A stretch of 18,890 bases of DNA from the UHGV virus genome UHGV-0367476, one strand, 5' to 3'. The position numbers were made by a program, and so were the translations under genes. The stretch is from a virus. Shown piece by piece: positions 1 to 1,940 of the stretch. The stretch's first letter is position 1; every line of letters starts with the position of its first letter. A model generated the notes under the pieces. It did not search any database. It had not been told where the DNA came from and worked only from the letters and a program-made list of their open reading frames with translations.

Positions 1-40
1 TAAACCCTGTTTTCCTTGCCATAGACACCATCCCTGTCTT

Positions 41-69
41 CCCCCACATGATGTGGGGGTCTTTTTTTT
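41..69 (+). terminator. Rho-independent terminator-like hairpin: 8-bp stem CCCCCACA/TGTGGGGG, 3-nt loop, then T8
   Basis: Perfect inverted repeat 41-48/52-59 followed by tttttttt at 62-69; oriented to stop a rightward transcript entering from the left flank. Confidence 0.6.
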
Positions 70-110
70 CAACGACTTACAAACTTTTCAGGCCAATTTT
101 ACCGTCCACA

Positions 111-128
111 CTGTCCACACTTCCGTTT
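111..128. repeat. Tandem direct repeat GTCCACACT x2; candidate integrase arm-type sites
   Basis: Exact 9-mer repeated head-to-tail at 111-119 and 120-128, between the window edge and the 3' end of int. Confidence 0.5.
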
Positions 129-158
129 CAGGCGGTTTCAGGCAGTCCCGAAACGGAA

Positions 159-181
159 AAATGCGTCCACATGTGGACGGA
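159..181 (-). terminator. Perfect 16-bp palindrome CGTCCACA/TGTGGACG with A5 on + strand (T5 on - strand) just after the int stop: int terminator and/or protein-binding site
   Basis: Palindrome at 166-181; int stop codon at 186-188; T-tract follows the stem on the minus strand. Confidence 0.45.
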
Positions 182-185
182 ATTA

Positions 186-1169
186 TCAGACTCCCAGCCC
201 CCCTTTCAGCGGATTCAGTGCGATAGCGTTCTGGAGATAATCCGGTGCCAGATGCGCATACGCCATCGTCTGCTGAATGCTGGCATGGCCAAGTATCTGC
301 TGAAGCGCAATGATATTCCCGCCGTTCATCATAAAGTGGCTGGCGAACGTGTGTCGCAGAATGTGGGTGGCCTGACCGCGTGGCAGGTCTGGCTTGACCT
401 TCCGCAGCTTCCGGCAGAAGTTTTCATAGTCCACCCGGAACAGCCCCGCGCTGGCGTTGGCCATAATTTCGTCTTCCAGTTCGGAAGAGATGGGAACCAC
501 GCGCTTTTTGCCGTTCTTCGTTTCCAGGAATACGACACGGCCGTGCATAATCTGCGATTCCGTCAGCGTACTGACCTCTCCCCAGCGTCCGCCTGTGCTG
601 AGGCACAGCAGGGCAACCAGTCGGTAATCGCCCGTCAGCGTGTCCAGCAGGCGGCTAATTTCCGGTTTTGTGAGAAAGGTCATGCCGGGATTTTTCTCTT
701 TCAGGGGAGGCAGACCACGCAGCGGGTTTTCCCCCTCAAACTCATCCAGCTTGATCAGTGCGCTGAACATGCCGGACAGCCGGTAAATATCGCGGTTGAC
801 CGTGGATGCGCTTATTCCCTGCGCCAGCCTGCGGCTGCGGTGGACTATCAGCATTCGTTTGTTAACCTCGCCTACCTGCGGATTATCCAGCGCGGTAATG
901 GTTTTGATGAGATGCCTGTTTTCAATCTCGCCATTCTTCTGCGTCTGGCCGTGGTAGAGCCACCACAATTCTCTGATATCGTCCAGCGTGCGCCTGTCAA
1001 TCTGTGCTGCCGGATCCCATTCCTTGCGCTGAAACTTACCCAGCATGTAGCGTTCATACGCAACAGCATCAGCCCTTCTGTTAAATATTTTGCGGATCCG
1101 CTTACTGGTGCGTCCGCCCGCTCTTGTGTCCAGTTCATAACGTCCATCATCGAGCTTCTTAATCGCCAT
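186..1169 (-). CDS. int: Tyrosine recombinase, P2-type phage integrase (327 aa from ATG at 1167-1169)
   Basis: N-terminus MAIKKLDDGRYELD and C-terminal HxLRHTFASHF...GHASIQQTMAYAHLAPDYL catalytic-Tyr region closely resemble P2 Int as recalled; GGAGGG Shine-Dalgarno 7 nt upstream of this ATG; the track's TTG start at 1226 adds 19 unsupported residues. Confidence 0.95.
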   Translation of the reverse strand: MAIKKLDDGRYELDTRAGGRTSKRIRKIFNRRADAVAYERYMLGKFQRKEWDPAAQIDRRTLDDIRELWWLYHGQTQKNGEIENRHLIKTITALDNPQVGEVNKRMLIVHRSRRLAQGISASTVNRDIYRLSGMFSALIKLDEFEGENPLRGLPPLKEKNPGMTFLTKPEISRLLDTLTGDYRLVALLCLSTGGRWGEVSTLTESQIMHGRVVFLETKNGKKRVVPISSELEDEIMANASAGLFRVDYENFCRKLRKVKPDLPRGQATHILRHTFASHFMMNGGNIIALQQILGHASIQQTMAYAHLAPDYLQNAIALNPLKGGLGV

Positions 1170-1253: not shown

Positions 1254-1574
1254 TTAACGGTGTGATTTTGCTGTTTTGGGGGTTAAATCCGGAATATCCT
1301 CCGGTTGCTCTGACCCATCAAGAGAGAGAGCCGGGGATATTTGACCTACCTCCGGCATGGTTTCGTCCGTTGAAAGCCAGTAAGCGTATTTTTTGAATCT
1401 TGGGTTTTTGGTTATCTTCATAAGAGCGCCTTCTGTTACTTGGAAACCCTTTGTTTCGTAGTTCGTTAGCGTTCCATAAGGTAAGCCAACTGCATCAGCA
1501 AACTCTTGGCGGGTCATTCCCTCAGCCTTGCGGATTAAACGAAACTTCTCACCCATACTTGACATATGTGCCAT
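1254..1574 (-). CDS. C: P2 C-type immunity repressor (106 aa from ATG at 1572-1574)
   Basis: MSSMGEKFRLIRKAEGMTRQEFADAVGLPYGTLTNYE... resembles P2 C (HTH ...GVPYGTLSYYE...); GGAGGA 10 nt upstream of the chosen ATG; tandem with int and divergent from cox as in P2; the upstream 105 codons of the track ORF are antisense to cox and the switch. Confidence 0.85.
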   Translation of the reverse strand: MAHMSSMGEKFRLIRKAEGMTRQEFADAVGLPYGTLTNYETKGFQVTEGALMKITKNPRFKKYAYWLSTDETMPEVGQISPALSLDGSEQPEDIPDLTPKTAKSHR

Positions 1575-1670
1575 GTAAGGAATATCCTCCATTTTGTAAT
1601 GTGTCACATGTGGAATGTTCCAGAGTGTTCTAGAACGGTCTGCAAAGGTTTGCAAAACGGAGGATAACAC
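1575..1670. promoter_or_regulatory. Lysogeny/lysis switch region between divergent C and cox (expected face-to-face promoters and operators)
   Basis: Divergent C/cox arrangement; contains palindrome CACATGTG (1605-1612), 10-bp palindrome GTTCTAGAAC (1627-1636) and direct repeat TGCAAA at 1641-1646 and 1651-1656 spaced one helical turn; exact -10/-35 not assigned. Confidence 0.6.
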
Positions 1671-1940
1671 ATGAACCTTGATGATTTGCTTATCAAGTAC
1701 CCGCTCGAAGGGGTGACAACTGAGAAGTTCGCGGAGCTGTTGGGTAAGTCTAAAAATGCCGTGGATATGATGGTTAAAGCGGACAAAATTCCTTTTATTG
1801 AAATTCAGGATCCGGAGAAGCCTGGAGCGCGTACGGAGAAACTGATTTGTATTGAGGAATTTAATAAAGGCATCCGGCTTGCATTTGCAAAAAAACCAAA
1901 AGCACAACGCGATGCGTGGCTAATGTGGTTAGGGCTTTAA
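1671..1940 (+). CDS. cox: Cox-type excisionase/early-promoter repressor (89 aa)
   Basis: C-terminus ...RDAWLMWLGL and overall size match P2 Cox (ending ...DGWLMWLGL as recalled); GGAGGA upstream of ATG; divergent from C. Confidence 0.9.
   Translation: MNLDDLLIKYPLEGVTTEKFAELLGKSKNAVDMMVKADKIPFIEIQDPEKPGARTEKLICIEEFNKGIRLAFAKKPKAQRDAWLMWLGL

Follow-up and report, generated by a model that had tools for sequence, protein, structure and literature searches.

The integration locus and its host site

The window, by which the whole 18,890-nucleotide stretch of the virus genome UHGV-0367476 is meant, opens with a short segment of host and phage DNA, after which come the genes int, C and cox. The int gene lies on the minus strand (186..1169, stop codon 186-188) and encodes a tyrosine integrase of 327 residues with the Pfam domains Int_N and Phage_integrase. 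It is followed by the gene for the immunity repressor C, a helix-turn-helix protein (1254..1607, minus strand), which is identified by the annotation of phage ESSI2_ev239 and by Pfam HTH_3 and whose start codon is uncertain. The plus-strand gene cox (1671..1940) specifies the excisionase, which is also the Pc repressor, and matches Pfam Phage_Cox at 5.7e-21. ESSI2_ev239, an Escherichia phage of the genus Evevirus in the Peduoviridae, is 100% identical to the window over 25-1300 and is collinear with the whole of it (96% coverage, 96.3% identity).

Positions 1-185 are the attL (B-O-P') junction of a P2-like prophage of the Peduoviridae, close to ESSI2_ev239, inserted in the cpxP 3'UTR within the small RNA CpxQ. 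The best overall explanation of the locus, and a very probable one, is that it is attL at CpxQ with the GTCCACA/TGTGGAC words serving as arm-type sites of the integrase (Int).

Window positions 1-81 find a match in all 5426 complete E. coli genomes that were searched. In strains M217 and SCU-171, the cpxP stop codon ends one base before this match, and the K-12 ncRNA cpxQ (b4716, 4106330-4106387) aligns to window 10-67 on the plus strand. CpxQ is reportedly an sRNA derived from the cpxP 3'UTR that acts in the Cpx envelope stress response. Its predicted fold (-17.4 kcal/mol) consists of two hairpins, the first being an AGACA/UGUCU stem-loop and the second the hairpin at 41-59 with its U-run. 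The attB is the cpxP-fieF site that is also used by phage Wphi; for E. coli W, PMC3032704 records Wphi1 there. ARAGORN found no tRNA or tmRNA as the integration target, and the literature searched contained no report of phage integration at CpxQ. The targeted host element is an envelope-stress sRNA which, in lysogens, is mostly phage-encoded.

The Rfam family RF02628 (Hrs1, 'Hfq-regulated sRNA 1') gave a match to the minus strand of window 1-67 that is truncated by the window edge and scores 47.9 bits, short of the gathering score of 56.4. Hrs1 was not used as an identification, as the match is sub-threshold and lies on the strand opposite to the annotated CpxQ. In the consensus of the model, a hairpin comes after an initial run of A, which is how a terminator reads in reverse complement; the family may thus have been derived from the antisense strand of CpxQ homologues. 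On the plus strand of window 1-67, no CpxQ family was matched in Rfam. In ESSI2_ev239, an O-acetyltransferase gene (L002, 911-2014) adjoins the P arm of attP and may be a lysogenic-conversion moron. In the prophage, it would sit at the far end, beyond the window.

The att core and the crossover interval

The prophage-host junction, for which a comparison with attB had been proposed in the preliminary description, was placed to within about 20 bp by aligning the window with the empty K-12 site, the attP of ESSI2_ev239 and two other prophages at the CpxQ site. Positions 1-24 are the same as in the empty K-12 site and unlike the attP. This host-only DNA is the start of the cpxP 3'UTR, directly after the cpxP TAG stop, and it holds the 5' 15 nt of CpxQ. 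From position 25, attP and attB are identical, and the identity decays after about 70, right of which all of the sequence is of phage origin. The att core can thus be set at 25..70, its right end being approximate, as an attP/attB-identical block with the switch from host to phage inside it; in the other attPs, identity to the core begins at 24-26. A recombination core at or left of about position 100 had been anticipated, and this proved correct, with a crossover interval as narrow as 25-47.

That interval follows from the prophage of SCU-171. Its attL carries a terminator of the phage type (CACGTGACGTG; CCCCCACGTGACGTGGGGGTC) and its attR one of the host type (CACATGATGTG; CCCCCACATGATGTGGGGGTT), so that strand exchange is located, from these sequences, left of 47 and right of 25. 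Within the interval lies an inverted repeat with a 7-bp spacer, AGACA-CCATCCC-TGTCT (23..39), the sole part of the core that is conserved across all the host genera compared. The two half-sites are candidate core-type Int sites and would flank a 7-bp overlap region, CCATCCC at 28-34. The same repeat doubles as the first stem-loop of CpxQ. A direct repeat, CCCTGTTTTCC/CCCTGTCTTCC, was also observed nearby (5-15 and 32-42), inside CpxQ.

The right part of the core is occupied by a Rho-independent terminator (41..69, plus strand). Its hairpin, CCCCCACA-TGA-TGTGGGGG at 41-59, has a stem of 8 bp with 6 GC pairs, a 3-nt loop and, on the cpxP strand, a U-run within the tail TCTTTTTTTT. It was recovered by the terminator scan and by folding, it stands directly downstream of cpxP, and it coincides with the annotated 3' end of K-12 cpxQ; hence, the hairpin is the cpxP/CpxQ terminator, present here as a phage-borne replacement copy. 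The idea that this first hairpin is an intrinsic terminator ending the host unit into which the phage integrated is thereby confirmed, the unit being the cpxP 3'UTR/CpxQ. Relative to K-12 and M217, C61 in the U-tract is of the phage type, while A51, though found in attP, also occurs in other E. coli such as M217. In the lysogen, CpxQ consists of phage-derived DNA from about nucleotide 16-38 of the RNA onward.

To the right of the terminator, an IHF-like site TTTCAACGACTTA (67..79, plus strand) departs from WATCAANNNNTTR by one mismatch and is regarded as a candidate. Relatives of the Wphi type carry a perfect TATCAATNACTTA in its place.

The GTCCACA words of the P' arm

Between the core and the int stop codon at 186, four exact GTCCACA/TGTGGAC words are crowded into 75 bp. 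Two of them belong to a tandem GTCCACACT x2 at 104-121 (words at 104-110 and 113-119, 9-bp period; TGTGGAC on the minus strand) and two to a perfect 16-bp palindrome CGTCCACATGTGGACG at 164-179, written CGTCCACA/TGTGGACG by its halves, with words at 165-171 (+) and 172-178 (-). The preliminary description had named these two elements and the 41-59 hairpin. All three exist and the hairpin coordinates are right; the tandem, however, had been put at 111-128 and the palindrome at 166-181. Over the whole window and both strands, GTCCACA occurs 8 times against 2.19 expected, a count reached in 0 of 200 shuffles. Half of these occurrences (4/8) fall in 104-178, for which the Poisson probability of at least four in 104 bp, taking the rate in the rest of the window, is about 1e-8. 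Similarly, four words were never obtained in 20,000 first-order Markov simulations of the region.

In P2-type phages, direct repeats with the consensus tgTGGaCa are present on both sides of the core and are bound by the N-terminal domain of Int (PMC3448106). GTCCACA is the reverse complement of TGTGGAC and thus of this arm consensus, which is matched in 8 of 8 positions by window 112-119 and in 7 of 8 by each of 103-110, 164-171 and 172-179. The P2 reference record (NC_001895) annotates Int binding at TGTGGTCAatgTGTGGACG on the P arm and at TGTGGACActgTGTGGACA on the P' arm, with IHF and Cox sites between the Int arm sites and the core. The position also agrees, as sites 104-179 lie between core 25-70 and the int stop, that is, on the P' arm. 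The integrase itself has the corresponding domain by sequence: its residues 1-12 (MAIKKLDDGRYE) are identical to those of the P2 and Wphi integrases, and Y11, D14 and R16 occur at the spacing of the proposed P2-type discriminators (PMC3448106).

The motif recurs on the other arm, where its absence would have spoken against an att function. The attP of ESSI2_ev239 has TGTGGACGtttTGTGGACG (L002, 2239-2256) with an 11-bp period, ahead of a perfect IHF consensus (2282-2294) and, beyond this, the core. The attR of SCU-171 has TGTGGACGtttGGTGGACAG (L168, about 24640-24660), likewise with an 11-bp period and followed by the IHF consensus. The P-arm repeats are known from these two sequences, the far end of this prophage being outside the window; its attR is expected to read ...TGTGGACGTTTTGTGGACGG-N25-TATCAATGATTTA-N14-ACACCATCCCTGTCTTCCCCCAC... 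and then fieF. Taken together, the sequence comparisons support the view, already advanced in part from the letters alone, that the GTCCACA repeats are predicted arm-type Int sites of a P2-like att arm. The repeats are now assigned to a known protein.

Comparison with known attachment sites

The attP of P2 (NC_001895: P arm, IHF, core, Cox, P' arm) resembles the locus in many ways. As in the window, att is followed by int, C and cox; the arm motif TGTGGAC(A/G) is that of the window phage, and the first twelve residues of Int are shared. The P arm of P2 also shows the layout found here, with a terminator, GTCGATGTGGAC..., two copies at an 11-bp period, IHF and core. In both phages, the core overlaps the terminator of a host sRNA. 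P2 differs in that it integrates at another core, AAAAAATAAGCCCGTGTAAGGGAGATT, which we take to be the 3' end of cyaR. P2-type elements are listed at 'cyaR RNA' (PMC3032704). The P' arms differ too. That of P2 has two direct copies in the P-arm orientation, overlapping the 3' end of int, whereas that of the window has one such copy and three inverted ones, two of which are on the core side of the putative Cox region.

Wphi and Wphi-like prophages share the attB (the 3' part of CpxQ) and the core block from 24/25, and their sequence is conserved with the window up to 81, including the IHF-like CAAYNACTTAC. The Int of Wphi is about 66% identical to that of the window. The P' arm of Wphi, GAGTGTGGACACTATGTGGACACTC, carries its two copies as direct repeats in the + orientation, with an 11-bp period, and a local covarying hairpin encloses them. 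Compared with Wphi, the window lineage has a rearranged arm and different Cox and C proteins. The occurrence of P2-type arm sites at a Wphi-type attB is already known biology.

Prophages of the ECONIH4 type use the same CpxQ core and, at the int stop, have a pair of direct arm repeats spaced by 11 bp, with the arm word TGTAGACA as against TGTGGACA. In E. coli ECONIH4 itself (L176, 585-612), the arm repeats read TGTAGACAagaTGTAGACA in the same layout, and the change of one base in the arm word suggests a shifted arm specificity.

The attP of lambda has the arm-type sites P1, P2 and P'1-P'3, which a heterobivalent tyrosine integrase connects with the core sites. Those on one arm are oriented opposite to those on the other, and sites for the recombination directionality factor (RDF) and IHF are interspersed. 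Lambda differs from the window phage in its unrelated motif, its distantly related Int and the number and spacing of its sites, and no membership in that system is claimed.

Arm layout in relatives

Relatives of Int were retrieved from genomes and from IMG/VR, where most loci stop at the int stop codon and are uninformative for the arm. More than 20 relatives, from about 15 genera of the Enterobacterales, lie at the same CpxQ site (conserved GAAGACAGGGATGGTGTCTATGGCAAGG) and have two GTCCACA-type words in one orientation, 11 bp apart, immediately after the int stop. The expectation of P2-like direct repeats next to int is thus true of most relatives but not of the window lineage, which is rearranged. 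The P2 arrangement of two direct repeats, about 11 bp apart, in the P-arm orientation and at the int stop is absent from the window. Here, the tandem pair lies 65-80 bp from the int stop, near the core, and is inverted relative to the P arm and to P2 and Wphi; at the stop, there is one canonical copy (TGTGGACG, 172-179, +) and one abutting inverted copy (164-171).

Read in the sense of int, the variant layout places a canonical word at +8 from the stop, followed by a pair of inverted words at +67 and +76/+77, with a period of 9 or 10. It was found only in the window and ESSI2_ev239, in L008 (Pseudocitrobacter, Int 97%), in L090 (Int 81%) and in SCU-171, the int region of which is about 75% identical to that of the window. 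The three words common to these sequences are invariant while their flanks diverge. The tandem pair is kept in L008, L090 and SCU-171 (with a 10-bp period in SCU-171 and L090), and 172-179 is the sole half of the palindrome that is conserved in SCU-171 and L090. The extra inverted half, which abuts the canonical word in the window and L008 and makes the palindrome perfect, is unconserved outside the ESSI2_ev239/L008 lineage. Exact-pattern scans of IMG/VR and metagenome contigs added 7 further loci, each of which is nearly identical to either the window or L090. The variant is, therefore, known from only two sequence lineages, and comparisons within it have low power.

What is new here is the rearranged P' arm in a small lineage, along with the covarying hairpin around the P' sites of relatives. 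Otherwise, the finding confirms the textbook organisation of att sites and offers no new mechanism. The rearranged arm amounts to a natural experiment on how far the P2-type intasome tolerates changes in the orientation and spacing of arm sites, and such freedom is relevant to the use of P2-type integrases as tools.

The SCU-171 prophage (L004, L168; NZ_CP054363.1, about 3082191-3129750) is situated at cpxP-fieF and carries a related int/C/cox module. Its structural genes are lambda-like (gpFI, gpG, T, J, head decoration protein) and unlike those of P2. It appears that the P2-type integration and switch module has been exchanged between phage types.

A model of integration and excision

In the proposed model, the last two thirds of CpxQ, with the terminator (41-69), come with the phage DNA. 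As this 3' part is phage-borne, integration would rebuild the sRNA. Strand exchange would take place in 25-47, probably around AGACA-N7-TGTCT. The words at 104-110, 113-119, 165-171 and 172-178 would be arm-type sites for the N-terminal domain of Int, and Int, held at the arm sites and the core and aided by IHF bending, would build the intasome as in P2. For excision, a Cox filament on the TTTCAGGC boxes that lie between the arm sites would help to form the excisome, again as in P2.

The suggested half-site family and the Cox-box candidates

The preliminary description had seen the same half-site in all three elements. This holds for the repeats but not for the 41-59 hairpin, which shares just CCACA/TGTGG with them, and only in hosts with that terminator stem. 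A single protein half-site family covering the hairpin as well would account for this shared CCACA/TGTGG, and the hairpin does lie within the core block, where core-type sites for Int must exist. Such a family is, nevertheless, highly improbable. The 41-59 hairpin is the terminator of CpxQ and occurs in every one of the 5426 E. coli genomes searched, and the crossover maps to the left part of its stem or further left. In related prophages of other genera (Serratia, Yersinia, Morganella, Photorhabdus and others), the stem follows the host, as in GCCCCGCC...GGCGGGG or GCCCTCC...GGAGGGC, and loses CCACA, whereas the arm motif stays GTCCACA. As the stem varies with the host and the arm word is constant, the CCACA that both have in E. 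coli is incidental.

It had also been suggested that the words could be Cox sites. The P2 Cox protein does bind the int-proximal arm, and RDF sites are typically direct repeats. The P2 cox-box, however, is TTAAA(G/C)NC(A/C), which recurs every 10-11 bp and is found in both orientations in attP (PMC3936717), and GTCCACA does not match it, being equal to the Int arm consensus instead (PMC3448106). The word is found on the P arm too, where the P2 record annotates no Cox site. It is constant between phages with different Cox proteins, while other boxes in the arm, TTTCAGGC or TCTCAGG, change. Finally, the early switch, where Cox must bind to repress Pc, has no exact copy of the 7-mer; the sole near copy, TGTGGAA at 1610-1616, is within a shared 10-mer that looks coincidental. 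On this evidence, that GTCCACA repeats should be Cox boxes rather than Int sites is scarcely credible, and they are best read as Int arm-type sites.

The TTTCAGGC repeats are better candidates for a Cox role than GTCCACA. Box 1 (86..93, plus strand) belongs to the same direct repeat family as box 2, 40 bp or four helical turns away, and is unconserved in SCU-171 and L090. Boxes 2 and 3 (126-133 and 136-143, 10-bp period) are accompanied by an inverted copy GTCCCGAAAC (145-154), so that the group spans 126..154, between the core and the int-proximal arm site, which is the position of the footprinted Cox region of P2. The 10-bp period is retained, and the sequence is unlike that of the P2 box, which is to be expected if the Cox protein differs. 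In SCU-171 and L090, the Cox of which differs from that of the window, both boxes change together to TCTCAGG, and the arm holds two copies of CCTGAGAC, the early switch region one. The switch of L008, whose Cox is identical to that of the window, has GTTCAGGAC, which is similar to the box. The switch region of the window has weak matches only, TTTGCAAACC/TTTGCAGACC and GTTCTAGAAC. On balance, we lean slightly towards the TTTCAGGC boxes being the Cox boxes of the window phage.

Hairpins at the 3' end of int

The whole P' arm is an imperfect dyad of 80 bp (102..181), in which the outer stem is made up of the arm sites and the inner one of the boxes. The palindrome, read on the minus strand from 179 to 164, also scores in the terminator scan as a terminator-like hairpin on the int-sense strand, followed by CATTTTT (CATTTTTCCG). 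It was, therefore, considered that the palindrome 164-179 or the dyad 102-181 is selected mainly as the 3' hairpin of the C-int transcript, be it as a terminator, as a 3'-end stabiliser or in Int-mRNA autoregulation, the motif copies being partly a by-product of the stem. Such a role would be compatible with the arm-site explanation. The int-sense RNA of 95-190 folds strongly (-43.8 kcal/mol, z -5.8); the opposite strand folds at -32.9 kcal/mol (z -4.3). All four variant sequences keep the dyad, with 28 consensus pairs and with three compensatory pairs, despite a divergence of about 25%. P2 Int is reported to regulate its own expression post-transcriptionally, and this counts in favour of an RNA hairpin. 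PMC11789052 cites Yu et al. 1994 in the context of RNA-binding autoregulation.

Further evidence for a hairpin comes from 18 canonical relatives, in which both arm words lie within a 10-bp stem. Its outer, non-motif pairs covary, with 86% of cells paired; double changes are seen in 6 of the 10 pairs, the covariation score is reached in 0 of 500 shuffles, and slid controls show 18-51% pairing. Selection favours a hairpin at the int 3' end. In Wphi-like loci (L024, 3490-3535; L134, L137 and L139), the P' words come immediately after int inside a stem of 10-15 bp, the outer pairs of which covary (CTGAG/CTCAG, CCGGAG/CTCCGG, CTAGAG/CTCTAG), giving a conserved hairpin at the end of the gene.

As for an RNA reading, the folds revealed no strand bias that would decide between RNA and DNA. 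Over the 18 canonical hairpins, the mean stability of sense and antisense folds is the same, and L090 has the more stable fold on the antisense strand. The U-tracts are either offset or short, a local hairpin at the int stop is absent from SCU-171 and L090, and the same motif stands on the P arm, where no int transcript ends. A main role in the transcript is, thus, possible but rather doubtful. The symmetry of the arm could still reflect selection on an RNA or DNA hairpin and not on every individual site.

A bolder proposal, which we consider unlikely, combines both functions. The small lineage of ESSI2_ev239, L008, L090 and SCU-171 would have remodelled its arm into a dyad with outer inverted Int sites and inner inverted Cox-type boxes, serving a dual role. 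If this were true, one piece of DNA would act as a recombination arm with lambda-like opposite arm orientation and as the structured 3' end of the C-int mRNA. The dyad would couple the occupancy by Int or Cox to int expression, and the covarying P' hairpin of Wphi-like phages would be a simpler form of the same device.

The early switch region

A candidate Pc promoter, TTGCAA-17-TAGAAC (1626-1660, minus strand), is overlapped by the direct repeats TTTGCAAACC and TTTGCAGACC (10-bp period), and a candidate Pe, TTGACA-18-TATCCT, lies at 1559-1588. The arm palindrome (166-175) and the Pe/Pc switch (1606-1615) have the 10-mer TCCACATGTG in common, and they share 18 6-mers against 4.5 expected. The switch copy of TCCACATGTG adjoins the candidate C operators GGAATATCC (1577-1585) and GGAATGTTCC (1611-1620). 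A link between the palindrome and the immunity switch was rejected as a probable coincidence, for L008 keeps Int, Cox and the palindrome but has a different C and a switch without TCCACATGTG. When L008 1990-2420 is compared with window 1254-1670, the repressor N-terminus and the switch region are unrelated, while Cox is identical and Int 97% identical. The mosaic boundary of L008 falls right at the cox ribosome-binding site.
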